This document shows, in pieces, positions 1,023-17,413 of a stretch of DNA of 20,000 nucleotides. The DNA comes from Reclinomonas americana ATCC 50394 (taxonomy: Eukaryota), in NCBI GenBank assembly GCA_048213135.1, contig PS015550.1, positions 51,755 through 71,754 on the forward strand, written 5' to 3'. Numbering within the stretch: the stretch's first letter is position 1; the number at the start of each line of letters is the position of its first letter. The translations under genes were made by a program, and so were the position numbers. The notes beneath the pieces were generated by a model. It saw only the letters and a list, made by a program, of their open reading frames with translations, ran no database searches and was not told the DNA's origin.

Positions 1023-2843
1023 ATGGCAAACGAGCCTGCGGTGTATGGCCTCAAGTACCAGGTGCGCCCCTGTCTGTCTCTCTGTCTCTCACACACAGTG
1101 AAACAATGGCTCACAACTGGTTGCAGGCGCGCGCACTGTGCAATGTGCCCGCGGACTCGGATGCACACACGTTCTTTGTGGCGACGCAGGTACACACACT
1201 TGCACACACACAGAGGCACAAACAGCTGTGCTCACTCCTTCCCACTCTCTTATCTCTCACATCACACAGGCTCTGCTGTACGACAACGAGTTCTACGTGT
1301 TGGTGTACAACGAAGACGACAGGCGCATGTTTGTGCAGGTTGGTGGTGTGCATTCTCTGCGTTCATGACTTGTCATCGATCTGACTCTTGCCCGCAGAGC
1401 ATTTACACCCACAAACCCGAAGTCTGGGCACTGGCCTCGGCTCCCTGGCGCAAGTCCGTCTTCTGCTCGGCCTACAACCTCGGCTCCAGCGGCTTCCACG
1501 CCTCTCTCTGGCGTCTCCCTTGCGTTTCGTGGCTTTCCCGCGTGTGCTTCTGTTCGTCGCTGTGGCGCGCTCACCGTCGCCACAGATGGAGGACGATGCG
1601 TCGGCCGGTAGCACCATGAAGGAACTGACGCGTCTTGGTGGCGATCCGGGTGAGACGGCATCGATTCACGAGGGCTCCATCAAGTCGCTGCTGTTTGGCC
1701 CGGTGGGTTATCGGGACTCGCTGGTGACGGTGGACGACACCACAGTGCATCTGTGGACGGTGGAGGACGCTGGCGCGCATGCCATTGAGAAGCAGCATTT
1801 CCAGCTTGGCATGCAGCGGTTAGTGATGGCCGCGTGGGATACGCAGCACACGGATCGCATTGTGGTCGGCAGCGAGAAGGCTGTGGATCTGCTGGACATT
1901 CGCACCGGCAAGTTGCGTTTGTTTGCGCGTGTGTATGCTGCCTCATCTGCCTCATGTTTGTGCACGAGCTGACGCACACAACACGCTCAGGTCGATGTTG
2001 AGCTTCCAACCGCACACGTTGCCACTGAGGTGTCTCGACTGCAACCCGAATGTGCCCGAGCAGATTTGCACGGCGGGCGAGGATCAGGTTTTGTTGTGCC
2101 CGGGGTGTGTGTGAGCGGCCTTGCGTGTGGAAAATTGACTCGTTGGTGCCGTCGCAGCGCATCAGCATATGGGATGTGAGGAATACGGATAAGCCGATTG
2201 TTTCCAAGATCAGTCACAGCCACTGGTGCGCGTTGTGGCTGAGGAGGGGGCGTTCTTGCCTCGCCACTGACAACGATTTGTGTTGCGCAGGATCACAAGT
2301 GTCACCTACAACCCCTTTTACGGTGTGTGCGCTGTCGGTCATTGCGCTGCGATCGCGTTGAACTTATTGTCGTACTCGTGGCCTGCAGATCAATTGTTGC
2401 TCACCGCGTCCACCGACACGCTGGTGCAACTGTGGGGAGTTGAGTGGCGGCGTCATGCATCACCCTGTCTACATCATGATTGACTGTATATACGACCTGC
2501 AGATCGAAACAATCAGCTCTGCCGCTCGCCCTGAATCGTTACATGCACAACGCGAGTGCATGTCAGCAGAGCACCATATCTCACGCGTTCTGTTTCTCAT
2601 GCAGAACACCACAACCACCGACGCTGGTGGCACGAGTGGACAAGCACGAGGATAGTGTCACTGCTGCGTGCTGGTCAGCCGCGGGCCCGTGGGTGTTTGC
2701 AAGCTTGTCGTATGATGGTGCGCATGTGGACTTTGTTTTCCCATCTCCCGTCGATCTCGATACTCATCTCTCTCGCCGCAGGTCGCGTGCTGCTTCACAA
2801 CGTCCCACAAGGCGAAAAGTACAAGATCCTGCTGGTTGAGTGA
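1023..2843 (+). CDS. EIPR1: EARP/GARP-interacting WD40 protein (TSSC1/EIPR1), 12 exons
   Basis: Spliced product begins MANEPAVYGLKYQARAL...FFVATQALLYDN and ends [42 protein letters not shown], matching the remembered EIPR1 motifs YGLEFQARAL and [13 protein letters not shown]...KYHILL. Introns: 1062-1126, 1190-1269, 1339-1397, 1524-1585, 1912-1990, 2088-2157, 2226-2290, 2323-2388, 2439-2502, (2538 or 2556)-2604, 2718-2781. Confidence 0.93.
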
Positions 2844-2955
2844 TCAGCATTTGACCCTTGACTCCACTCACAGTGAATCCACGCTGCTACTTTCGTGTAC
2901 TTGCTGTTGATTTCTTTTTCACTCGGAGCGGTTGGCGTTCGAGAGGGACGAATAC

Positions 2956-5900
2956 TTAAATCTCACGACCCTCGTCGTCCAAGTTGCGCGTTGCGAATCT
3001 AAAGAGGGAGCCCGCATTGGTGGTTGTCGAGCTGGGTGGACTCTGCGTCGTCCGCGGACTCTGCGTCGTGCGCGGACTCTGCGTCGCGGGTGGACTCTGC
3101 GTCGGCGGTGCCGCGGCAGTGGCAGGGGCCGAGCCGAAGCGTTCCACTGGCGGTGTTGGTGAAGGTGTTGGTGACGGCGATGACGCCTCACTGGCGGCGA
3201 GAATGCTGGACGCCTTGCGCAGATCCACCGATTGCACCGCGCGTCGCGACGACGGCGCGGCAGTGAGGTCGCCGAACGGATTGGAGCTGCGGGCACTGCT
3301 GTGGCTGCTCGGTGGCGTCACCTGCATGCTGGCGTGGTGCGCGCGCATACCGAGTCGCTGAGACGACGTTTCTGACGGCACCAAGAGTGGCGGAGGGGCG
3401 CGCGTGGTTGGGGGTGACCGTGGCATGCTGCCCGTGGCAGAGAGGCGTGAGCTGTGTCGCGTGTGCACCAGTGGTGGCGGGGTCGCCGGTGGCATCTGGC
3501 CGGGACTGTCGGATCGTGCCTACCAGACAGAACGTGAGTGTGGAGGGAGATCAGCTCGAGCAGCAGAGAGCACCCACGCACCCATCCACCACCAAGCAGT
3601 GCGCCCTCTTCGTCGTCTTGCGAGTTGGTCGACATGCGTCGGTCGCCGAGACCAGTCGTCGTCGAAGACGGTGGCGGGCACACGACTGGGTCGGTGGAGG
3701 CCGAGATGCTGGAGGCGCCGTGGGCAGCCATCTGCGAGCACGTGTCAGTCACCGTACGTGCGTGTGTTCGTGATCGATGACAACGAGTGAACGAACAGCT
3801 TCCGCCACGTAGGATGCTGGCAGCTGCACTTGCACGACGAGGTTCGTCGGGGTCTTTGCCGCCGTGCCAACGTCCGCAGTGCCGGCACCCGCGACCACGC
3901 CAGTGGCCCCCGGTGCGGCGCTGGAGAGGTCGTCGAGGGTGATGGACTGCATCAGCATCGCAGAGTGAGGGGACGTAACCGTCAAAGATGCCATGTGCAG
4001 AACGCAACCGATGGGAGACCACCGTGGTGGTCGTCGATGCTGCTGATGCGCGTGGCCTTGCCCTCGCTGTCCACCACTGACCAGGTGAGCTTGGCGCGGC
4101 GCTTCTGACGCTTCTGGACCTGTGGCGATGAACGGAAGAGAGGATGAGCTCGTAAAAGAGAGTGACAGAAAGGTGCAAGTGCACACACCAGGCGGATGAG
4201 GAACTGTACAGCGACTAGACCGCCGATACACAAGAGCAGTAGTGGAGCGACAACGGTCTGTGAAGGAAACAAAAGTCAGAAAAAAACTGGCGACAGCGGA
4301 GGATCGAATACGAGAGTCGCACAAGTGGGATCCTGAGTCTGCGATGAGAGGAGACCGGAGTGAGAGCAGCGGAGCGAGATCAGCAACAAGACTTGACGCA
4401 AAGAAACGAAACAGTCTGTGCACAGAACGAGGGCACGTGAGTAGCCGGGGATGAGAGCCAAGAGAGAGAGAGACAAAGAGTAGGATTCACCCGTATGGAA
4501 TCGGTGCAATGAACCACACCATCCATTCGGCACGGCGCTGCAGCTTGTCGACCAGCTCCGATTGTTGTTTCTGCGAAGAGGCGGAGAGAAGTGAGTCATG
4601 TCGCCCTGAAAAGAAATCAAAAGAACGTGGCGAACCATCATCAGTGTGGAAACCAAAATGTACCACACCAGCCTGCGCCAGAACAATCAGTACCACTTTC
4701 CAAGCTTGATTCTCTCCACTGCCAACACACGCAACGTGGTCAACGTGATAAAGTACGAGATGAGCATGAAGCGATCGGCAAATGTCTGCGCAAACGCAGC
4801 TCGCAGGTGAGCAAAGTGCATGCGACATGAACTCATGCGAGGCGCTCACCATGGTGCCCGATGGCACGCCCAAGTTGTCTGCCGGTAGAGGGGATGGGGT
4901 GAGAGAGTGTAGATAAAAACTCGTTGACGAACATTCACGAAACAATGATACATGACGAGGGCCTGCGAAGAGGCGGAGAAGTGAGCATGAAGTGCATGTG
5001 ACACGCGATGGCGTTAACGACAGCACGCAACGACAAAGGAGTTGGTGACGAGACCAAACGACGTGGACAGGTAGTCCTTGTACGAAAGCGAGAACGACGA
5101 CAACACAATCAACTGTCGTGCGCACATGCAGTGAGCAGCATAGCAGCGACACTGGGAAGGATGAAGGGAGAAACGCACAACAATGAATATCGGCGGCAGC
5201 AGAGTCTGTGGAAGCGAGAGTTAGTTGTGGAGGAGAGGATTTGTACACGCACGCCATCCACTTGCCTTGGAGAAGCACTTGAAGTCTGCGACAGCGAGTG
5301 AGTGAGTGAGTGGCTATCTTCGAAAAGAGCAACATGAGAATGGCGACGACTCACATGGTCTGTTGATGGGCATAATGTACTCGAGCATGGGCGTGGTGGC
5401 CAGACCGCGCTTGTACATGGTCATGCCTTTGAACTGGACCAGCGGGTCGTCAAACTCCCAACCAGGAATGACTGAAAAGATCCGTGAGCACTCTGACGAA
5501 AGCGATCTCTCTCTCTCTCATCGCCTCACGCAACTGATATCATCAGCGTATCCACTGGCCTCGGGTATGAACTCCATATGCGTGACGCCATTCACCCAAA
5601 AGCGAATGTTGAGTCGCTCCACCTGCGTCACACGCAAGCAAAATCAGGCACTGGCATCAGTCACAGTCACCGCAGTGCCGCAGCGCCGCAACATCAAACG
5701 GAAAGTCTTGCGCTTCCAGCGGCCAGTTCAGCGTCGTGCGACAGATGGTGTAGCAGTCGGAGGGAAAGTACGTGCCTTTATGGACGATCATGAGCCGCTG
5801 CAAAGACAACTGCAAGTGCTGCTGCAGTGGAGACGCAACATCGCACCCACAAGCCCGCATTGTCGACCCACGGGTCCTGTGATCCATCCGCGGCCGGCAT

Positions 5901-6171
5901 CCAGCAGGCGTTCTCCGGTTGCGGAGTGCGAAAGGTGAAGACGAGAGTGGCGTCAAAGGCGCCCGTGTCGACCACCACATTCGCAATCTTCAAGAGAACG
6001 AGAGAGTGAGACAACAAGAGAGAGCAGCAAGTGTCGTGTGTGTGTGTGTGTGCTCGTAACTTTGGAGACAAAGAGGCCCACGCGGAGAGACGAGGGAGGT
6101 GATGCGGCGTGAGTGGCGCAGGCAGTGAGCAGCAGAAGGAGGAGGAGGAGAAGGGGACGAGAAGCGTGCAT
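2956..6171 (-). CDS. Cys-less (Pro-loop) pentameric ligand-gated ion channel subunit 1, about 20 exons, with an extra TM helix and a long S/T/P-rich tail
   Basis: Signal peptide MHASRPLLLLLLLLLTAC; beta1-2 VGLFVSKIANVVVDTGAFDATLVFTF; Pro-loop QDFPFD; IPGWEF; pre-M1/M1 INRPYFKCFSKTLLPPIFIV; M2-M3 YHYNLGVPSGTMTFADRF. All 19 introns (about 60-75 nt) keep the frame to the TAA at 2956. Confidence 0.82.
3036..3106 (-). repeat. Coding 18-bp tandem repeat (4 copies) encoding TQSPxx
   Basis: The core ggactctgcgtcg recurs every 18 nt and translates on the minus strand as TQSPPA TQSPRT TQSPRT TQSPPS. Confidence 0.9.
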
Positions 6172-6927
6172 GTTGTGTGTGTGTGTGTGTGTGTGCAAAG
6201 AGTGTGTGGAGTGCAGCCACCCGCTCACTCCAAGGTGGAGGAGAAGATCGATGGCCAACTGACTGACTGAGTGTTTTTTCGCAACAAGGGCGCAGCGAAT
6301 GCTTTTCGGAGTTGCATCTGAGGCATGACAGCAGCTGCATTCGTGCTTGCATCGGCCACGACACGTACAGCAGAATCGCAGCACGTCGCGCCTGCTGAAT
6401 CTTTCTGCTGCTCAACCCCGACACCACCTCTGTCACGCGCGTGTGTGTACGTGTGCACGCTTTCCTCACCTCAAGAACACCTCCTGACATGCATTCCAGC
6501 TTTGCTCGACTGGCGGTAGGCCTGTCATTGTTCTTGCTTCCCTCAGTCAGTCATTCACTCAGTTGTCGACAGATCCCGTGTCGATCGCTGGTGACGGCCG
6601 CCGTTGGTCGCATTCTACGCGTTGTCGGTCACACCCCGACTGCGCCGAGCATTCTTCCGCAGTCAACGTTCGCCACGCGGTTGCGTTTCCTGCTTGCTGG
6701 CTGCGGCACTCTTTTTGTTATTTTCCTTTCCTTTCCGTCCCTCCTCCTGACCTGTCGCGAAGAGAATTCTCGGTTTCGAGGAATCGATTCGCGTGGTGGT
6801 GCTCACACGCGGAAGCAGGTCGTCGTATTCCTTCCCGTTGTTTATTGCCGCTTCTACGAGAGCATTTGCCACCACCTCGAAGGCTCAACAGTCTGTCACC
6901 AGCAGCAGCACCACCGCCACCAACAAG

Positions 6928-7500
6928 ATGTCGATGCAGGCCTCGCAGCAACCCGACGTGGTCGACTTTATCATCACCGACCACCAGGTGATGAAGGACA
7001 AGCTGTCGGAGCTGAAGAATGCGGCCAGGGAGCAGCGCCAGTTGCTGCTGGAGCAAGCGGGCGCCATGCTGCGCGCGCATCAGCGAGCCGAGGAGCAGCA
7101 CGTGTACCCGGGCCTGGCCAATCAGGGCTCGGAGGAGAAGGGCCTGATCCAGCACGCTTTCGACGAGCACCGCGAGGCCGAGGCACTGCTGATGCAGCTC
7201 GAGGCATGTTCGATCGACTCGGCCGAGTTCGACAAGGTGCTGGGCGAGCTCGAAAAGGGCGTGCTGCACCACATGAACGAGGAGGAGACGAAGGTGCTGC
7301 CGACGATGCGACGCGAGCTGGAGCGCCAGCGGCTGCTGGACATGGGTGTCAAGTTTGAGCGCCAACGCTTGGCCGAGGTGGCCGCGGAGGCGCCGTCGGC
7401 CTCCAAGTTGTCGGCCGCCTCCACCGCCACCGCAGCGCTCGGCGGAACAGCAACAACGACCACATCATCGACCACGACCTCCTCTCGCGGAACCGCCTAG
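6928..7500 (+). CDS. Hemerythrin-like (HHE cation-binding) protein, intronless
   Basis: The metal-ligand pattern DH...HQRAEEQHVYP...EH...HHMNEEETKVLP (H, HxxxE, H, HxxxE) is typical of HHE hemerythrin-like four-helix bundles. Confidence 0.9.
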   Translation: MSMQASQQPDVVDFIITDHQVMKDKLSELKNAAREQRQLLLEQAGAMLRAHQRAEEQHVYPGLANQGSEEKGLIQHAFDEHREAEALLMQLEACSIDSAEFDKVLGELEKGVLHHMNEEETKVLPTMRRELERQRLLDMGVKFERQRLAEVAAEAPSASKLSAASTATAALGGTATTTTSSTTTSSRGTA

Positions 7501-7925
7501 TGAGAGAGCACAGCTGTAGGAAAAATAGAAAGACCTTGTTAGAGGGCAGGGCAGTCGGAATGTATCCGCCGGAAGTTGTCCCACTCGTTCTTCTTCGTGC
7601 TCGAGTGGAGACGGGGATGCGTCCGTCCAGCGTGAAGGCCGTGAATGCGACACTTGCCGTTGTGCGAGCCAAGCAGGGTGAGCTGCTCTCATCCTTTGTC
7701 TGTGGCCGACTCACGCACTGAGGAAGAGACCGCGACACACAGCTGTGAGTCGGAAGACGCGATGGATGTACATTGTGTTTCACACGATCGTGTTTCTCGC
7801 CGCCAGTGCCGTGCTCATCTGCACGGTCTACGATGACGCAGAGAATGCAGAGATGCGGTGCGTCTCTCTCTCATGATCACACTCACATCAAATCACTCTT
7901 CATTCTTACACTCATCAGGGGACTC

Positions 7926-8834
7926 ATGGAGCGCGCACGACAGTCGTTCAAGCAGGCCACATCGCTGCTGATGCAGCCGCATGTGGCCTTGTTTGTCATT
8001 GCAGCAGTTGCGGGCGGAGCGACAAGAGTTGTCTTTCATCATCATTGTCGCAGAGTCACTGACTCGATCCGCACCCTGCAGTACGCACTGTGGATTGTCT
8101 CTGCCGCCACCAAGCAGTTTGTGCTGTCACAGGTGGGCGCTACTCGCGTTGTTCTATGTCATGGCGGGCACTTCTCACTGTGTTTATCCTTGTAGCCGTG
8201 GAAGAGCGTCCTCGGCAAGTCACCCAAGGTCTGCTCCTCCGACATCTTCCACTGTCACTTGTTCGCTCACTCCCTCCTTGCCGGAAACCAACAGTCGGAA
8301 GTGGAGCGCGTGGCGCACGGCATCTCGCTCTTCGTGTACGCCATCGGCCTCATCTTTGTGCTCAGCAACTTCGGTCTCGACACCACCGTGTTGACCTCCT
8401 CGATGGGCATCACCGCCGTGGCCGCGGGCTTTGCGTTGCGCGAGTTTGCCATGAATGTGATTTGCGGACTCTTCCTGTTGGCGTACGACCAGTACCTGCC
8501 GTTGCGTCCACCACGCTGTTTATTGTGCGTTCTCCATGTGCTCACGGTGTGCACGTGTGTGGGGCAGAGGCGATCGCATCAAAGTCAAGGATTTCGAGGG
8601 CATCGTGTCGAAAGTGGTGCGTGACAGCAGTCCATCGCCCCCTTCACAACGCTGACTCCCGTCGTGCAGCATCTGCGCTACACAGTGGTGCAAGGCGTCG
8701 ACGCCAAGGACGGCCAGCTCTTCTACATCCCCAATCGCGACATGACCGAGTCCATCGTGACCCTCATCAGCCGCGCTCCCGACGCCGAGCCAGCGCCCTC
8801 TCCCTCCAGTGACGAAGGCAGCCCATCACAGTAA
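7926..8834 (+). CDS. Short MscS-family mechanosensitive channel (start uncertain, upstream exons likely)
   Basis: TM2-TM3 FVLSNFGLDTTVLTSSMGITAVAAGFALREFAMNVICGLFLL, then spliced YLP|GDRIKVKDFEGIVSKV|HLRYTVV...FYIPN, which is the MscS beta-domain signature (GDxI...G.V..I.LRxT...IPN). TAA at 8832-8834. Confidence 0.88.
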
Positions 8835-8846
8835 ACAAAAAAAGAC

Positions 8847-9398
8847 TCACAGCTTGGTACGCGTCAACAGCGGTGGATCCAGTGCCATCAGCAACGCCGA
8901 CGAGAACACCGCCGACGCCGCTCCCACATCGCCCCACCGCAGAATCGCCTCACACACCGCCTCCGCCTCCTCCACCACCGTCAAGTCACACACAAAACGT
9001 CGCACAATGCTGCAGTCCTCGCCCTCTGACGGCAACGCCAGCAGGTCGCTGCTCTCATCGCCCGCTCGTCGATGCGTAAACACCACTGCCTGCACGCGCG
9101 ACGACGAGCGGCACTCGCGCAGCATTGCCTCCACATCTACGCTCTTGGCGGCAGACACGGGCACCAGAAGCACCAGTGCATCGCAGGCAACCAGATCATC
9201 CGCGACACTCTCACGCGTGTGACTGGCAGCAACGCGCAGTGAGTCACACAGAGAGAGAGAGAGTGTGTGTGTGTGCAAGTGACAACGCAACAGCACCAGT
9301 GGCAATGGGGGTCGGAACCTGCTCACTGCCACACTCGCACATCGCTCACAGAACGTGCGCTTGCCGCTGCCGGGTGCACCACACACGACAACGCGCAT
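8847..9398 (-). CDS. Degenerate small GTPase-like P-loop protein
   Basis: MRVVVCGAPGSGKRT (G1-like), ACDALVLLV and AVVFTH strands. G3 and G4 are not canonical. Probable intron 9318-9223 containing CA/CT repeats. Confidence 0.6.
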   Translation of the reverse strand: MRVVVCGAPGSGKRTFCERCASVAVSRFRPPLPLVLLRCHLHTHTLSLSLCDSLRVAASHTRESVADDLVACDALVLLVPVSAAKSVDVEAMLRECRSSSRVQAVVFTHRRAGDESSDLLALPSEGEDCSIVRRFVCDLTVVEEAEAVCEAILRWGDVGAASAVFSSALLMALDPPLLTRTKL

Positions 9399-9408
9399 TG
9401 TGAGAGCA

Positions 9409-9446
9409 GGGTTACCTTTGGCGGGGAAAGTGCCGCGCGGTAACCC
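9409..9446. promoter_or_regulatory. Inverted GGGTTACC/GGTAACCC pair in a 103-bp divergent intergenic region
   Basis: gggttacc at 9409-9416 and ggtaaccc at 9439-9446 lie between head-to-head ATGs at 9398 and 9502. Regulatory function is inferred only. Confidence 0.35.
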
Positions 9447-9501
9447 CCATTCACTTTCTTTTGCGCCACTTGTTTTGTGTGCTATCCTCGCTTCCGTTAT
9501 C

Positions 9502-10988
9502 ATGTCGTTCGGCATCAAGGGTTGCGTTGCGGGTAGAGGAGAAGAGGGGGAGGAGCGATAGAGGAGTGCAATGCAGTTTGTTTGTTTGGTGTGAAATGGC
9601 GCTCTCTCTCTCTCACAACTTTGTGCCTGTGTCTGTGTGTGCATTAGTTCTGGGCACTCGCGGTGCGGTGCAGGCCGAGTCTGCGCAGTTCACAGTCGGC
9701 TCTGCGCGTCAGAAGGCCTTCTGGGGTCAAGTGGTGACGCTGTTGCGTGAGGAGTGCCATGCTCATGACGCACACACCTCTGTCTCCCTCTCTCTCTCTT
9801 TCTCGCACCCAACTGACACACACACGCACGCACACACGTTGCATGTCTTTGCTGCTGTCTCTCTCTCACACACTGTATGTGCAGGCCAATGGGTGACGGT
9901 GCACTGCTGGTGCAGTTGTTTGACGATGACGATCAGGAGGCTGGTGAGTGTGTGTGTGTCTCTCTCTCTCTCTTGTGTACATCAGTGTCAGAGCAAGTGA
10001 GGGATAAGAAAGGAGAGAGAGAAGAGAGAGTTATGTTGCATGGTGATCGTATTTGAAGTGCATTGCATCGCGTGTTGTATGTGTGTGTCGTGTCTTTGTG
10101 TGCGTGCGCGTGTGTGTGTATGTGTGTGCGTGTGCGTGTGTCTGTGCATCGCATACTCAGCCTTCTTCCTCTTCTTCTTTCTCGTTCTTTTGTCGCAGCT
10201 CGCGTGACCATTGACCTGCACACTGTGGCTCCCAACTCGAGCGACTGGTTCGACCTGAGCAACGGCTCTGGCGCTGTGCAGCTGAACTTTGAGGCCGTCG
10301 GCGGTTGCGTCCTCTGTCTCTTCGTGATGATGATGATGATCGCGCACCTCTCATGACTCGTCTGGCTAATGTAACAGGTGCCGTGGCCATGGACGACGAT
10401 CCGTTTGGCGCACCGGCGGCCTCGGGCTCTGGCTTCCAGCAGGTCGACTCCGAGGAGGAGGAGGAAGAGGAGGAGAGCGAGGAGGAGGAGGAGGAGCACC
10501 ACAGCTCGGAGCCAACGCCGCTCATGTTGTGGCAGGAGAAGCACAATGCGGAGCTCATTGAGCGCGCCACCGCCGCGCGTGCCAAGCGCGACGAGCGCAA
10601 GACCGGCGCCCGCGACTGGTTGAAGAAGTTCTACGAGGATCGCGACGGCAAGCTGTCTGCCAAGCAGAAGCTCAACCGGTGCGCTTTACATTTTTGGTAA
10701 CCATTCATCCCTCCCTTGCCGCCCTTCTCAACCCCGCCCCGCATGTGCAGCCAACAAAACCAGGCTCTGGTGGAGAAGATCAATGCCAACCTCGGCGTTG
10801 GTCAGATCTGGGAGCGTGTCAGCAACCTCATCAACATGGGCGCCAACTCGGCCGGTCGCAAGGACGTGGCTCGCATGCGCTCTGTGCTGCTGCAGGTGAA
10901 GAACTCGACTCCGGCTCACTTGGCGCGTCACGACGCCGTCGCCGCTGGCGGCCGTGGCGGTGCTTCGGGCTCGGCCGATCTGTTCTAA
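9502..10988 (+). CDS. Clathrin light chain with an N-terminal C2-like domain, 6 exons
   Basis: The C-terminal part has an acidic region, then PLMLWQEKHNAELIERA...ARDWLKKFYEDR and IWERVSNLI...KDVARMRSVLLQVK (clathrin light chain signature). Exons 9502-9520, 9648-9741, 9885-9943, 10199-10303, 10378-10678 and 10751-10988 are all in phase. Confidence 0.88.
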
Positions 10989-11176
10989 GCTCTTTCTCTC
11001 TCCCTCTCTGTGTGTTTTTTTGTGGCAAATATGGTCTTTTTTAAGCGCTGTCTCGTCGTGTGCGTGTCTTCCTCCTCCTCCTCTTGTTCTTCTTTCATTT
11101 TTACGTGAGTACACTTGTGCACAACAGACTGTGGTTACCTCCTCCTTTCTCCTCCCTCTACTGTGTCAATTTGTCT

Positions 11177-12840
11177 TTACTTTATCTTTGAGTATCGCGC
11201 CAGGTCGTCGAGACTTCCGTAGCGCCGCTTGACCAGATTGCGATGCGCGGACTCCAAGAAGCGCGCCTTGCGGTCAAAGTCGAGCGATGTGCGGCTGCGT
11301 GGCAGGCCGTCGTGCATGCCTGGCGAACTGCGGCCACTACTGTTGCCGCCGGTCTCGGTCTGTGAGCCGGCGCGCGCACTTGTCTCCGACGGCGGATCAG
11401 CTGGCTCTGGCGTCTCGGCGCGCTCCTGCTCCGGTGTCGGTCGGGGCACGAAGAAGAGCTGCAGACGACCGCGGGCACTCTGTCCACGCGGCAGACTCCA
11501 CAGCAGGTGGCCGAAAACCAGCGACACCAGAATGACGCACACTGAGACGACGGCGGCGCGCCACGGCAGCGAGAGGATCGCCACCAGAATCGGCACGCAC
11601 ACCCACACGGCACCGGAGGAGATGCGCTGGAGGCGACGAGCCAGCGGTGCGCGATTGACCTTGGTCAGTGAGCCCACGTAGCGGTACCACGCAAAGCTGG
11701 TGTGACAAAAGAAGTGAGCAGCCGCACCGAGTAGGGGAGAGAAAAAGGGAAGCAGTGCACGCACCACAGCGCAATGAGCAGGTACACGCCGAGCACGAAG
11801 CGATCAATGTAGGAGATGTTGCTCGACGGCACGTCGAGGTTCCAGTGGAACAAGATGAGACCCCTGCCGCAAGAGAACCAGGCGGTCAGCATGCTGCAAG
11901 AAGCCGGCCGACAATCGTCATGTGCGCGCGTGTGTGTGTACGCAACAACAGCGAGGCACTGCACACCGAACTGCCGACGCGCACGTAGCTCTCCGGCGGC
12001 AACGTGAACGGCGCCGTGACGATAATGACCAGTGCGATCGGTGGCAGGAAGAACTTGATCATGGCCTTGAACAGCGGTCGGGTCACCGGCACGGCAAAGG
12101 TGATGGCCGAGATGGTGTCGGCGCCCCGATACAGGCCACTCGGCCCGCTGATCGACACCGCGTCTCGATCAATGTCAAAGGTCGGCAGATACACCTGTGG
12201 CAAGCCAAGAAGATGAGTTCAGACGCCACGGAATGGGTGGAAACGCACGGCCAGCTACTGTACCTCGTCGGCGACGCCAGAGGCCTCCGGGAACGGAAGC
12301 AGGCGAACATTGGGCATCGGCAGCGAGAAGGTCACGGCAATGCTCTCGTCGTTGAAGGGGAAGGAGCCCGAGGACAGCACCGGCCAGAACTGCATGACTG
12401 TGCAATCAGTACCTCCCTCTCTCTTTCTGTGAGTGTGTACTCTCCACTCGCTTGCGCACCACTGTCGTCTTGCACTCAATGAAGCACAACGTGGGCTGCT
12501 CGAATCGCTGGCAGATGGCTCTCGGATGTGCATTGTCGATCCACGGAAGCACATCGGGAGGAGGCAACCAGCATTCATCTCCTCCACCATCTGCTGCCTC
12601 GCGACGAAACGAAAACACAATGGTCACATCCGCTCGCGCAGTCTCCAACTTGACATCAGCAATCTGCGCGCTTTTCGCTGCTCAGCTGCGATTCACTCAT
12701 TCACGAGACAGAGACTGACTGACCCTGCTGATCCACACGCCGGCCTTCACGTCGATCACATCGCTACTCTGCGCCTCTGCCACAATCACCGCGACCGTGC
12801 AGAGAAGAAGCACGAGGCACGCTATTCTCCGCAGTGTCAT
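11177..12840 (-). CDS. Cys-less pentameric ligand-gated ion channel subunit 2 (paralog of 2956-6171), 6 exons
   Basis: Signal peptide; AGVWISR|IADVKLETARADVTIVFSF; SFPFND; VTRPLFKAMIKFFLPPIAL; FHWNLDVPSSNISYIDRF; two further hydrophobic helices. It aligns colinearly with subunit 1. Confidence 0.82.
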
Positions 12841-12927
12841 TCGGGAGTTGTCAACTNNNNNNNNNNNNNNNNNNNNNNNNNNNNNNNNNNNNNNNNNNNN
12901 NNNNNNNNNNNNNNNNNNNNNNNNNNN

Positions 12928-14546
12928 CGGTCCTGCCGCACACCACACGACGTCGTCGATCTTGAGCAGCGTGGCGACGGTTTCCACGGCAAACGACAGC
13001 ATGCTGGTCTTGACGGCGGCGGGCTCCAGCACGCCGAGCTCGCGCATGTTGGCCACGGAGCCGCGGATGAGATCGAGGCCGCAGTGAGCGGCGCCCGCCA
13101 CGTCGGTGGCAATGGTGTGACTGAGAGCGGTGATCAGCTCGAACTCGTTGTGACCGGCGTTGGCCGCCAGTGCCTGTGGGAGGGCGAGAAGGGAGCGCGC
13201 CAGTGCGCGGGCGACGGACCGCTCGACGGCGCNNNNNNNNNNNNNNNNNNNNTTGCAGGAGGGCGGACGTGCTCGAGCCAGTGTGCGAGGTGCGCCTCCA
13301 CGGAGCCACCGCCGGCCACCAGCTGCCGCGCTCCCAGAACAGTTTGCACGGCCCGCTGCGCATCGTGCAGGGCACGTTCGGCCTCGGCGAGTATGGTCTC
13401 GGAGGCGCCCTGCAGCACAACACTGCACATGCTGGTCGGCGTCGATATTTCATGCAAACGCAATTGCGACACGGTGCCGCCGTCCAGCAACTCCAGCGAC
13501 TCGGCCTCCACCACCATGGAGGAAGCAGAGGTAGACGCACCGTCGTCACCCACAGCACACAAATCGTCCGGCGACAGCAACGGCACACCCGTGTACTCGG
13601 CCACTCGTCGCAACACATCGCTCGGCACCTGCGCCACCACTAGCACACCTGCCTCCTCGAACGCATGCAACACCCTGTCTTCCACCTTGCCACCACACAG
13701 CAGCACATTGCATCGAGTGCGTGCCACCCACGCCTCGACCATCACTGCAACACGCGCCGGCAGCGCAAAGGCCACCAGCGTGGCGCGCACCGATGTCACC
13801 AGTCGCGACATCAATCGCGAAGGAATGGCCCCCATGTTGCGCCACACAGCACCCGGTTTCACCAAGTACGAGTCTGTCAACTGCCTGCCCGCTCTTCGCT
13901 GTACCACCGACAACGGTGCCGCGCCTGCAGTCACCACCGAGTCCACCGCCAGCTGCGCAATGTGCGATCGTGCACTGGCCACAGCGCACTTGGAGGCCAG
14001 CACAGTGTTGGCCATGGCACTCATCAGCAACGCAGCACTAGCTCCCTCTTCAGCATCCACAGAGAACGCCAGATGTTGCTGCACATGATCCACGGCCTCA
14101 TCACGCAGGCGAAACAGTGCTCCGAGAATGTCGGTGTTCGCCACGCCCTCAGTGTGCACCAGCCGCAGCACAGACGACACGATCTCCACGGCCAGCACCA
14201 CTGCACTGGTCGTTCCGTCACCCACACGCGACTGCGCGAGCGGTGTGAGTGACAACAGAGAAGAGAAATAAGAGGTGAGAGCGCGCAACATCCTGCGAGG
14301 TGGCCAAGTCTGCGAGGATGCGACACACGGGGTTCTTGAGTCGAAAGTGTCGCAGAATGGTGGCACCATCGTTGCTCAGCACCACGTGCCCGCTCTCATC
14401 GACCAGACACTTGTCGCGACCCTGCATGCAACACTCACGTGAGTTGTCTCTGTGGAGAGCAAAGAAGGAGCGGCAGAGGCCGAAACTAGTGGGCCGAGGG
14501 ACGTGCGCAGAATGTCACGCAAAAGATAACAGGCGTCAAAGCTCAT
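12928..14546 (-). CDS. Divergent group II chaperonin, CCT1/TCP-1 alpha-like paralog (stop codon probably in the N gap)
   Basis: Motifs TSLGPL|GRDKCLVD...SNDGATIL, QD|SRVGDGTTSAVV, ERALHDA, VAGGGSVEA and GVLEPAAVKTSMLSFAVETVATLLKIDD. Introns at 14486-14422 and 14289-14232. Confidence 0.88.
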
Positions 14547-14643
14547 GAGGCAACGAAGACAAGAGGATGAGACGGACGAGGACAGCTTGGTTGGTTTCGC
14601 TCATTTACGAATAATTTTTCCTTCTTCTGCCACACTTGTCTCC

Positions 14644-16976
14644 TCATTCGGGCTGCGTTGGTGTCGGTGCGGTGGCGGGTACAGGTGTGGGAGTAGTGGG
14701 CGTGGTGGGCGTCGGAGCTGTCGACGTGGGGGCAGTGGTGGTGGTGGTGGTGGTGGGAGCTGGTGCGGCAGCAGCGGCGGCAGTGGGGGGCTTGATGGCC
14801 TCGTGAACGGCGACCTTTTGCCAGGAACCGTCGCGCATGTTCATCTGGAAGAGCACTTTCTCGCGGTAGGCTTGGTTGGTGCTCTCGACCACCTTTTCCG
14901 ACATGGACAGCGTCACGGTCATCATGCCGTCGCTGTTCGGATCCACAGCACCTAGAGAGGGAGGAATGTGTCAAACGACGACGCACGACGCAGGCAACGC
15001 GGCTCACTGCACGCAACTGCGCTGGCCGGAGAGGAAGGCGTAAATGTAGTTGCGAATCTCGGTGGTGACCATGTTGCAGTCGGCGGTGAGTTTGTTGATG
15101 GTTGCCAGGATTTGCTGTTGCTGCAGGGCCAACTGCAGTTGCTGCTGCTGGTGTGGCGTCAGCTGTTGCATCTGCTGCGCCGCCTGCATCTGCTGGTGTT
15201 GTGCGGTGTGCTGATCGGCATTCTGTGCAGCCGCCGGCAGAGTTGCCGAGGGCACGCCAAATGGCGGTCGATACTGCTGCTGCAAAAACGGATTCTGCCC
15301 GCCGGCAGCCGCAGCAGCAGCCGCGGCGGCGGCGGCGGCTGCAGTGGGCGCCTGAGCGGGTGTGGTCAGCTGGAACGGAGTCGGCGTCGGTCGCTGCATG
15401 AGCGAGCCGAACGGTGATGGTGTGGCTGAAGCGCCGGGTACGGCACCAAGCACAGCTGCGGCCGCGGCTGCGGCCGTCGCAGTGGCTGCCAGTGACGGAG
15501 CAAATGGAGACGCGCCGAGACCCTGAATGGCACACGGTCAGCGTGATGTGAGGGGGTGAGTGTGAGATGGGCGCAAAAGCACTCACAGCTGCGGCGGCCG
15601 TCTCTGTGCGCGCGCGCGTGTGAGCAACGAGAGACTGTGCGAAGCAGCAGCAATATCGTGGCACGCAACTCTTCTTCTCCTCGCGTCGCTTTTCCTTGTC
15701 CTCTCGTTCCTTTTCTTTCCTCCTTTGCTTGGCCTCACGAGTGCGATCGGCCTGCTCCTCCTTTTCTCGCTTCCGTCGTTCCTTCAAGTCCTCGCGGGCG
15801 CGTTTCACTGCGAGCATGTGAGCAACGAGCAAAGGAGGGAGAGAAAGAGAGCAGCTCACCGTCTTCCTTTTCCTTCTTCGCCATTTCTTCACGACGACGG
15901 TGAAGCGAGTCGGCCTCCTCGGCCGCCAGCAGCACCACACTGCCCTCTTGACCGGCCGTGAGCGGTGGTGAAGCCGCCCGTGCTACGCTGGCCTTGAGCA
16001 TGCGATCAAACACCTCCTCGTCGCGTCGCGTCAGGAATGCCGAACCACCGCCGAGCGAGCTGCCGCTGGTCGTTGTCCGCGAGGCCGCCGTACGCTGTGC
16101 GGCGGCACGCAGAGCATCAAACCCGGACAGCCGTGGCGCGCCTGCCGTCGTCGTGAGACGCAGCGAGAATGTGGAGAATGTGGCAACGGACATTACCTGG
16201 TCGCACTCCGCCACCACCACCAGCACTACTGCCAGCGCCACCCAGCTGCGAGGATCCACTGGCCGACGATGGTGCATCCGTGTCCATGGCACTGCTGCCG
16301 TCCTCGCCTCCAAAGGATTTTGCGTGCACCAGACTGCGGGGTTTTAACCGGAATGGCACTGAAGGGGAAGAGGTGAGGTGTGCGTGTGGGAGAGAGACGA
16401 GAGTGCGTCAAAAGACGCAACGATGCGGCTCACGAATGGCCACCAGCTCGGCTCCATATTGCTCCTGCAACACGTCCTGGTCGATGTAGGCCCACACACG
16501 CGGAGGCACTGCAATGTAGCCGAAATTGTCTTGCCACACGGGCGCCAGCCGGTCGAGGGCGTCGTCGACCTCACGCAGTGAGGAGTTTGCCGACATGGTC
16601 ATGAGGTCGTCAGCCGAGCCGTCGTCGGAGGATGCCGATGGCGTGGCTGGCGGTGGTCCGTGCACGTCGATGCGCGGCACTCCAGACGACGGCACGTCGC
16701 GCAGGATGCGCCCCATGACCTGTGTCCACTTGTCGTCGTCGTACTCGGCCACCTGTTGTTCGGGGGGTGAGTAGCTTACTCACGCACACGCATGGGCTGC
16801 ACACCCACACACACGCAACTCGAATGATTTCCGTCATCTCCTCGCGCACGTCGTTGACAGCGGCCTTCTTGAGCGTGAGGAAGCCGAGCAGTACACGAAT
16901 ACGGACCGAGGCCTCCAGGCTCGAGAAGTTGGTCGCAATGCGGCGCAGGTCACTCTTCGAGATGATGGAGGATAGT
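14644..16976 (-). CDS. NELFA: Negative elongation factor A homolog (first exons upstream, across the gap)
   Basis: FSSLEASVRIRVLLGFL...EMTEIIR|VAEYDDDKWTQVMGRILRDVP matches the remembered NELF-A FHGLSSAVKLKLLLG...EIIQLASLDSDPWV. CNMVTTEIRNYIYAFLSGQR...VLFQMNMRDGSWQK matches NKVTRPEKALILGFMAGSR...VFEMNYATGQW. Seven resolved introns. Confidence 0.85.
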
Positions 16977-17180
16977 CTGGAAGGGGTGAGGGGGTGAGAA
17001 GGGGAGAGAGCGCAAACAAGACAAGTGCGACGAGAGTGCAGAAGAGAACAATAAACGGAGCGCAAGTCGAGGCGAGCGAGAGTATGAGAGGAGAACGGGG
17101 CGCGCAGGAAACGAGATAAGCAAGATAATGCGAGAAAAGACACTGAGCACAGCGAGGACAACAGGAGGAGAGAGACACAG

Positions 17181-17413
17181 GAGACAAGACAAGAACGCAT
17201 GCAATGCAAGCCGCAGCGAGAGGGAGACAAGTGGCAGGAGAGGATGAGACAAAACAAGCGGGAATGATCAAGACGCAGCGCACAGCAAGGATGAGAGAGG
17301 CGGAGGAGACAAGACAAGAATGCATGAAATGAGGAGCACAGAGAGGAAGACAAGTGGCGGGAGAGAATGAGACAAGACAAGCGAGAATGGTCAAGACGCA
17401 GAGCACAGCAAGG
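17181..17413. repeat. Degenerate direct repeat with period about 125 bp (2 copies) inside a long NELF-A intron
   Basis: gagacaagacaagaa...gacaagtggc.ggagag.atgagacaa.acaagcg.gaatg.tcaagacgcag.gcacagcaagg starts at 17181 and again at 17306. Confidence 0.85.

Follow-up and report, generated by a model that had tools for sequence, protein, structure and literature searches.

This analysis concerns the 5' splice sites (donors) of the introns in a 20-kilobase window of eukaryotic DNA, the whole of the stretch taken from contig PS015550.1 of Reclinomonas americana ATCC 50394, many of which begin with GTT and appear to carry the ordinary donor consensus one base further downstream. The window has a GC content of ~58%, contains three assembly gaps and holds the genes listed below, with the families of genes A, C, D, E, F, H, I and J assigned by searching the open frames against Pfam and PDB.

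Gene A, + strand: EIPR1
Gene B, 2956-6171, - strand: membrane protein without a known family, paralogous to gene G
Gene C: hemerythrin-domain protein, single exon
Gene D: MscS-like channel
Gene E: small P-loop protein
Gene F: clathrin light chain
Gene G, 11180-12840, - strand: membrane protein without a known family, paralogous to gene B
Gene H: divergent CCT-alpha-like chaperonin
Gene I: NELF-A
Gene J: WD40 protein, single exon
Gene K, left edge of the window: short gene with no family match

Gene models were made by inspecting the reading frames by eye and then coding them as coordinates. The resulting models contain 58 introns across 9 genes and zero internal stops, with GT-AG ends in 57/58 introns and GC-AG ends in 1/58. 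GTT starts 28/58 introns, and 24 of these 28 donors (41% of all 58 introns) lack G at +5 and carry it at +6; in this shifted class, +6 is G in 24/24 cases and +7 is T in 18/24, while exactly GTTGCGT is read in 14/24. Of the 30 non-GTT introns, one is the GC-AG intron and 29 have GT donors, for the most part GTGCGY or GTGAGY. The density of introns in the window is extreme, with 11 introns per 1,098 nucleotides (nt) of coding sequence in EIPR1 and 18 introns per 1,977 nt in gene B.

These counts agree with those of an earlier note on the same DNA, which had estimated that about 25 of about 57 introns start with GTTnnG, usually followed by T at +7; our independent models gave 24/58 and 18/24, respectively, and every hexamer that the earlier note had listed lies at the coordinate and on the strand that it gave. 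Two of the listed donors had to be abandoned. At 5839, the frame needs GTGCGA at 5846 (a 49-nt intron extending to 5798), within which 5839 falls at +8, and a donor at 4412 would demand a 3-nt exon, so 4387 (GTTGCT) was substituted with low certainty. The hexamer at 9318 is present, but its status as a donor is doubtful, the same-phase GTTGCGT at 9291 being the better rival. GTT donors beyond those listed were modelled at 1339 (GTTGGT), 4635 (GTTCGC), 3796 (GTTCGT), 8007 (GTTGCG) and the aforementioned 4387. The proposal that this lineage uses these donors as a main splicing code has a single 20-kilobase window as its basis, in which 8/9 modelled genes carry such donors.

Apart from their donors, GTT introns resembled the other introns of the window. 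A branch-like YTVAY motif was found in 28/28 GTT introns and in 26/30 others, at a median distance from the acceptor of 17.5 and 15 nt, respectively; in the ordinary class, this motif takes the form C/T-T-C/G-A-C/T and lies ~15 nt from a CAG acceptor. Median intron lengths were 66.5 nt for GTT introns and 65.5 nt for the others, and C occupied acceptor position -3 in 25/28 and 28/30 introns, respectively. Branch, acceptor and length are alike in both classes, which supports assigning both to ordinary major-type GT-AG introns. Minor (U12-type) introns were considered and rejected, as the U12-type donor (A/G)TATCCTT occurs in 0/28 GTT donors and the branch motif is that of the other introns.

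The register of the GTT donors was assessed with a donor profile built on the non-GTT GT donors over positions +3 to +8. Against this profile, the mean score of the 28 GTT donors was -9.3 bits for the in-register reading and +1.8 bits with +3 skipped, compared with 2.2 +/- 2.5 bits for ordinary donors (leave-one-out) and, again with +3 skipped, -3.3 bits for the window's remaining 422 GTT sites. The +3-skipped reading fits better in 26/28 GTT donors; GTTCGT and GTTCGC do not follow this pattern, both being donors of the ordinary register that have T at +3. The exonic side of the junction differed as well, with G at -1 in 25/30 non-GTT donors vs 7/28 GTT donors (Fisher 1.4e-5) and vs 5/24 donors of the shifted class (Fisher 5.7e-6), and the composition of the shifted class at -1 resembles that of the ordinary -2 position. 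Both classes carry G-N-T-G-C-G-T, with cleavage after the first G where N is G and before it where N is T. The 26/28 profile fits and the loss of the -1 G bear out the earlier description of these donors as the local GTGCGT/GTGAGT signal displaced by one base. That GTT donors are real exon-intron boundaries is shown by the alignments described below.

The intron side of this pattern would be predicted equally well if standard U1 small nuclear RNA (snRNA) kept its ordinary register and the T at +3 (or +2) formed a bulge, because skipping +3 restores the consensus in the same 26/28 donors, and bulged pairing has been validated in human cells (Tan et al. 2016, PMC4856993). However, a bulge leaves the exon in register, such that G at -1 should persist or strengthen rather than drop to 5/24, and a full one-base shift outperformed an exon-in-register bulge by 28.8 bits over the exon flank of the 24 sites. 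The loss of the -1 G thus matches a full shift of the U1 register, while a simple bulge predicts no such loss, and we regard the bulge as unlikely.

The exon joins are fixed to different degrees. Among the 28 GTT donors, 10 were pinned gaplessly, 6 were partly pinned (1912, 5692, 5031, 11946, 16819 and 8501), 3 were forced by the frame (9742, 10304 and 4008) and 9 were no more than plausible, with 25 archaeal thermosomes, a transcript-derived EIPR1 ortholog (P0101) and the paralog within the window serving as references for pinning. After removal of the introns, the models were colinear with their homologs in the genes with usable alignments, namely the chaperonin, EIPR1 and the B/G paralogs. 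In the lists and text that follow, signed numbers given for alternative donors are changes in alignment score.

A search with the chaperonin exon returned 42 proteins at 21-27% identity, whose source names include thermosome (4) and archaeal chaperonin (2). The spliced chaperonin model aligned without gaps to 25 thermosomes through both of its introns, which lie inside two highly conserved blocks of the family, and moving the donors cost 9.9 to 21.7 score units (mean over 42 thermosomes).

14422..14486, - strand: chaperonin intron 1, GTTTCG, phase 0, in a conserved block; alternatives -9.9 and -21.7
14232..14289, - strand: chaperonin intron 2, GTTGCG, phase 0, in the nucleotide-binding motif; the only GT within reach, GC start at +4 -10.9 (42 thermosomes)

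The chaperonin itself (12948-14546, - strand) has CCT alpha as its best match, with partial query cover and an E value of about 1e-20, and is remote from the standard CCT subunits; it may be a lineage-specific CCT-like paralog.

For EIPR1, an initial protein search with one exon gave no match and a PDB search gave nothing usable, whereas an exhaustive protein search with one EIPR1 exon recovered one true ortholog, P0101 (378 residues), the remaining matches being mostly multi-WD40 proteins. Membership of P0101 in the EIPR1 family was confirmed by the protein Atlas. Its source contigs are 1,246 and 2,068 nt long, and because the shorter one is too small to hold introns, P0101 presumably reflects the spliced message of a relative. 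The spliced EIPR1 model aligned to P0101 with a score of 917 and without gaps at donors 1339, 1524, 2088 and 2439, where seven alternative donors cost 8 to 40 score units.

1339..1397, + strand: EIPR1 intron 3, GTTGGT, with T at +3 in the ordinary register; gapless against P0101, alternative 1348 -13
1524..1585, + strand: EIPR1 intron 4, GTTTCG, shifted class; gapless against P0101, alternative 1542 -16
1912..1990, + strand: EIPR1 intron 5, GTTGCGT, phase 2; join aligned, with a 1-residue gap 5 residues downstream
2088..2157, + strand: EIPR1 intron 6, GTTTTG; gapless against P0101, alternatives -8, -20 and -40
2439..2502, + strand: EIPR1 intron 9, GTTGAGT (GTGAGT plus one T); gapless against P0101, alternatives -14 and -20

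Genes B and G aligned to each other without gaps over ~165 residues that cover nine introns of B and three of G. Since the exons of G are long, this alignment fixes the joins of B at 5534, 5031, 4943, 4735 and 4635, and B in turn fixes the join of G at 11946. In addition, an intron at B 4008 is needed because a stop must be bypassed to join the exons of the C-terminal tail.

5988..6060, - strand: gene B intron 1, GTTACG; position and phase match the G intron at 12738; uncertain, alternative 6069 +5 against G
5623..5692, - strand: gene B intron 3, GTTGCG, phase 0; sole in-phase GT, GC start 3 nt downstream -11 against G, with alignment gaps close by
5472..5534, - strand: gene B intron 4, donor GTTGCGTGAGG, phase 1; gapless against G, GTGAGG 5 nt downstream out of phase, GC start at +4 -7
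4963..5031, - strand: gene B intron 8, GTTGCGT, phase 0; gapless against G, GC start at +4 alone -10
4879..4943, - strand: gene B intron 9, GTTTCGT, phase 1; gapless against a continuous G exon, sole alternative -19
4673..4735, - strand: gene B intron 11, GTTGCGT, phase 2; GC start at +4 -7
4571..4635, - strand: gene B intron 12, GTTCGC, +3 T in the ordinary register; gapless against a continuous G exon, alternative 4626 -7
4258..4387, - strand: gene B intron 14, GTTGCT; chosen by frame, of low certainty, with a 2-residue gap in the alignment to G, alternative 4384 +6
3947..4008, - strand: gene B intron 16, GTTGCGT, phase 0; sole in-phase GT within 10 residues
3732..3796, - strand: gene B intron 17, GTTCGT, +3 T in the ordinary register; fits the frame, with typical length and branch motif; uncertain, rival donors 3784 and 3781
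11864..11946, - strand: gene G intron 4, GTTGCGT, phase 2; gapless against B, alternatives -11 each
11697..11764, - strand: gene G intron 5, GTGCGT, an ordinary donor that serves as comparator

The introns at B 4735 (GTTGCGT) and G 11764 (GTGCGT) split one codon in equal phase, so the two donor forms share one homologous position and an equal exon boundary. The paralogs have two exact intron positions in common, this one and 6060/12738. Two further pairs nearly coincide, with B 5031 and G 11946 offset by 1 nt and B 5534 and G 12263 offset by 4 nt, and these could possibly be cases of intron sliding. Gene B also contains a 20-nt microexon (5266-5285, - strand) that aligns without gaps to G and lies between introns 5286-5354 and 5206-5265, one a GTGAGT intron and the other a GC-AG intron with donor GCAAGT.

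The joins bear on a further explanation of the GTT donors. Because GTTGCG has GC at +4, the intron could instead begin 3 nt later (exon ...GTT | GCGT...), with the frame kept and one residue added, such that these introns would be GC-AG introns or would have tandem donors 3 nt apart. A GC start improved the alignment at 1912 (+7) and made no distinguishable difference at 5031 and 11946 when both were changed (+1), but it lowered the score at 14289 (-10.9, 42 thermosomes), 5534 (-7), 4735 (-7) and 5692 (-11). It is impossible at six pinned donors, 1524, 14486, 4943, 2088, 1339 and 4635, because their +4 position does not begin a GC. It would also leave an invariant exonic GTT across all three codon phases without a coding rationale. 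GC-AG starts were therefore rejected as a general explanation on the grounds of these alignment losses and of the pinned donors without a GC at +4, and we consider them very unlikely.

Alignments reached less far in the remaining genes. In NELF-A, the exon 5' of 16819 matches residues 31-79 of human NELF-A and positions 23-72 of Pfam NELF-A_N up to its penultimate residue, while the exon after it gave nothing usable in PDB and no Pfam match at E values up to 10; an in-phase GTGAGT at 16783 would leave a 31-nt intron. Both exons flanking 15017 were likewise without a PDB match and without a Pfam match at E values up to 10, and one GT rival, GTGAGC at 15007 with an intron running to 14933, would make the protein 3 residues shorter.

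16753..16819, - strand: NELF-A intron, GTTGCGT, phase 0; upstream exon aligned
16359..16421, - strand: NELF-A intron, donor 16421 GTTGCGT or 16433 GTGAGC, both phase 1 and 4 residues apart
15604..15669, - strand: NELF-A candidate intron, GTTGCGT, 66 nt, in frame, with intron-like motifs
14952..15017, - strand: last NELF-A intron, GTTGCGT, phase 1; preserves the frame of the last exon

The candidate at 15604-15669 is probably an intron, as the translation of the retained sequence would look out of character for the region.

In the MscS-like gene, the exon before 8501 aligned gaplessly with solved MscS chains to its last residues, and the next exon begins at position 21 of the Pfam beta-domain. 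The protein search gave no match for the MscS-like exon, and the beta-domain exons gave nothing usable in PDB. A same-phase GTGCGT at 8525 would give a 44-nt intron and 8 extra residues. For the clathrin light chain, a GTGAGG 5 nt downstream of 9742 runs into a stop in the next exon, and the other options are GC starts or change the length. In gene E, GTGAGC at 9326 is a third contender for the donor.

8007..8081, + strand: MscS-like candidate intron, GTTGCG, 75 nt, in frame and stop-free, with donor, branch and acceptor motifs
8501..8567, + strand: MscS-like intron, GTTGCGT, phase 2
9223..9318, - strand: gene E intron, in frame and stop-free, donor 9318 GTTCCG (96 nt) or 9291 GTTGCGT (69 nt, equal phase)
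9521..9647, + strand: clathrin light chain intron 1, GTTGCGT; plausible, hinging on the choice of start codon
9742..9884, + strand: clathrin light chain intron 2, donor GTTGCGTGAGG, phase 2
10304..10377, + strand: clathrin light chain intron 4, GTTGCGT, phase 1; sole phase-1 GT, with a single AG within reach

Four joins had been described by the earlier note as pinned by gapless alignments. That at 14289 was confirmed against the 25 thermosomes; that at 16819 was confirmed on its upstream side only; that at 8501 was supported on its upstream side; and that at 5692 was supported by the cost of its alternative (-11), yet there are gaps close by.

Another explanation is that many joins were mis-inferred and that the true donors are nearby ordinary GTG or GTA sites. 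Ordinary-looking donors of the same phase do lie close to several GTT donors (8525/8501, 16433/16421, 1542/1524, 1348/1339 and 15007/15017), and a gene finder based on codon usage produced poor models. Where alignment was possible, however, the nearby ordinary donor lost (1348, -13; 1542, -16), and the donors at 8525 and 16783 imply introns of 44 and 31 nt compared with a median of 66. A test that stands apart from the joins came from counting motifs. GTTGCG, at 31 copies on both strands against 19.3 +/- 4.3 expected, is modestly enriched (31 was reached by 1/200 dinucleotide shuffles), and GTTGCGT is strongly enriched, at 17 copies against 4.55 +/- 2.10 expected (17 was reached by 0/200 shuffles). 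All 17/17 copies of GTTGCGT have the same orientation as the gene they lie in or near, as 14 model donors and 3 other sense copies, with 0 antisense and 0 intergenic. Since this bias requires knowledge of gene orientation only, it is independent of the exact gene models, and it argues against mis-inferred joins, which we rate as highly improbable.

One of the sense-strand copies that are not among the model donors lies upstream of the hemerythrin open reading frame.

6680..6686, + strand: GTTGCGT upstream of the hemerythrin open reading frame, sense strand

The region 6680-6770 (+ strand) contains this GTTGCGT, a pyrimidine tract and a branch-like motif ~250 nt 5' of the hemerythrin start codon, and the motif at 6680 is a possible start of an intron in the 5' untranslated region.

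Recognition of the 5' splice site is taught as one pairing register of U1 with rare exceptions. Roca and Krainer reportedly described, in 2009, shifted (+1) human 5' splice sites, a few dozen atypical sites in all. Like the GTT class, human shifted (+1) sites keep GU at +1/+2, lack a +5 match when read in the ordinary register and regain the consensus one base downstream. The two differ in that the core of the GTT class, for which U1 pairing is a prediction, is GC-rich (GCGT), while that of the human sites is AAGT, and in that the shifted register is an atypical curiosity in humans but serves 24/58 introns in this window. Shifted and bulged registers have been established experimentally for human U1 in the work presented by Tan et al. 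(2016, PMC4856993), whose shifted-register test oligonucleotide, as described there, also had no G at -1. According to Table 3 of that paper, a curated human list of 201,541 sites contains 54 in the bulge +2/+3 register and 36 in the +3 register, with non-canonical registers of every kind making up 2.1% of sites; by these figures, the human registers comparable to the GTT class make up well under 0.1% of sites (PMC4856993). The human bulge +2/+3 and +3 sites share with the GTT class one extra nucleotide after GU followed by resumption of the consensus, but they predict no loss of the -1 G preference, which the GTT class has lost.

Uncoupling of U1 binding from cleavage also has precedents. For the tandem donor of STAT3, the position of U1 and the cleavage site are argued to be separable (PMC11162779), and Tan et al. 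2016 (PMC4856993) cite older cases of cleavage uncoupled from U1. The likeness to the GTT class is that U1 would mark the region, with the exact cut set later by U6 and the catalytic core; the difference is that U6-defined cleavage is known from single genes or reporters, whereas here it would be routine for ~40% of introns. Among the papers listed by concept searches of an open-access library, none describes GTT or shifted donors as an abundant class, whatever the organism; motif searches of the same library returned primers and unrelated sequences. What would distinguish the window is the use of a known rare register as a routine code.

On this basis, we propose that two 5' signals co-exist in the major-type introns of the window and that the GTT class is read by a shifted U1 register, to which we assign a probability of roughly 0.6. 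Approximately half of the introns carry G|GTGCGT-like donors and ~40% N|GTTGCGT-like donors, which are the same motif set one base deeper into the intron, such that in the second form the first G of the intron takes the place of the last exon G of the ordinary form. U1 snRNA would pair with both forms through identical bases, which in the GTT class lie one base downstream of the cleavage site, and the later spliceosome (U6, U5 and Prp8) would then cut before the nearest GU.

Several points weigh against this proposal. Just 10/28 GTT donors are fixed by gapless alignments, and 9 (6060, 4387, 3796, 8007, 9318/9291, 9521, 16421, 15669 and 15017) are no more than plausible placements. The downstream sides of the joins at 16819, 8501 and 15017 follow a presumed resemblance to homologs, PDB searches of the exons there having found nothing usable. 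In EIPR1, a GC start at 1915, 3 nt past 1912, aligns better to P0101 than the GT start does, and GT and GC starts are indistinguishable when B 5031 and G 11946 are changed together. The pairing itself presents difficulties, in that standard U1 would bind only weakly in the shifted register, pairing to it would not select the C that is almost invariant at +5 (22/24), and U6 would need to accommodate one more base separating its own pairing from the cleavage site.

Given the weak pairing and the uniform shifted class, a dedicated U1 variant or a change in U1/U6 deserves serious consideration; the earlier note had suggested such a cause, or modified U1C, Luc7, Prp8 or SNRP27, as a possibility. 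In such a scheme, a second U1 variant (or altered U1/U6) complementary to GUUGCGU would act as the partner of the GTT class, giving two parallel 5' codes. Donors vary far less in the shifted class than in the ordinary one: 14/24 shifted donors read GTTGCGT exactly, compared with 16 different hexamers among the 29 ordinary GT donors, and the +5 position of the shifted class is C in 22/24 donors vs 15/29 at the equivalent ordinary position (p = 0.002), even though A would pair better than C with the established sequence of standard U1 (Tan et al. 2016, PMC4856993). The loss of the -1 G would also suit a partner that pairs with intron bases only. On the other hand, the ordinary class likewise favours C at +4 without a known need for a variant U1, and the small sample of 24 vs 29 sites may exaggerate the difference. 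Rfam searches of the window at E values up to 1 found no snRNA genes, returning 9 weak matches that were all far under their gathering scores. We regard a dedicated partner as rather unlikely.

If four in ten introns across the genome have the form shifted by one base, it would constitute a natural experiment on uncoupling U1 binding from the choice of the cleaved bond, and it would also inform how U6 tolerates an extra base and how introns can slide by one base. The B/G pair has one intron position common to both donor forms and another intron pair that lies one base apart. In practice, GTT introns would be overlooked or wrongly placed by splice-site models that learned from ordinary donors. 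A bolder reading, in which two 5' codes operate side by side and the GUUGCGU class has its own U1 variant or U1/U6 pair as a selected mode, seems to us possible but doubtful; were it true, standard gene finders would mis-annotate ~40% of the introns of this eukaryote, and a cut made one base 5' of the register in which U1 pairs would be a normal, selected mode rather than a tolerated defect.

GTT introns could also owe their common donor to descent, having spread as introner-like mobile elements that bring an unusual end of their own. Introns 5031-4963 and 4635-4571 of gene B do have near-identical ~28-nt 3' ends that run from the branch motif through the acceptor (4963-4992 and 4571-4600). 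Nevertheless, the 351 pairs of GTT intron cores had a mean local alignment score of 8.1, compared with 7.0 for shuffles and 7.9 for ordinary introns, the top pairs were CA or CT low-complexity runs, and B 4735 and its paralogous intron G 11764 are alike in position, not in sequence. Of all the explanations considered, this one appears to us the least probable.

Searches beyond the window added little context: metagenome scans found no related locus, the matches of the protein search included no annotated proteins of this genome, and the protein Atlas gave no lead for gene G. Within it, four candidate introns are stop-free and have lengths that are multiples of 3 (8007-8081 and 8229-8294 on the + strand; 15604-15669 and 9223-9318 on the - strand), and retention of any of them would therefore preserve the frame. 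The clathrin light chain has an apparent N-terminal extension of ~95 residues (9502-10303, + strand), encoded by four exons and without a family match, and the conserved part of the protein begins after donor 10304. Finally, a purine-rich 123-bp tandem repeat (17163-17413; 2 copies, 85% match) adjoins an assembly gap of 528 bases and lies upstream of the first visible NELF-A exon.

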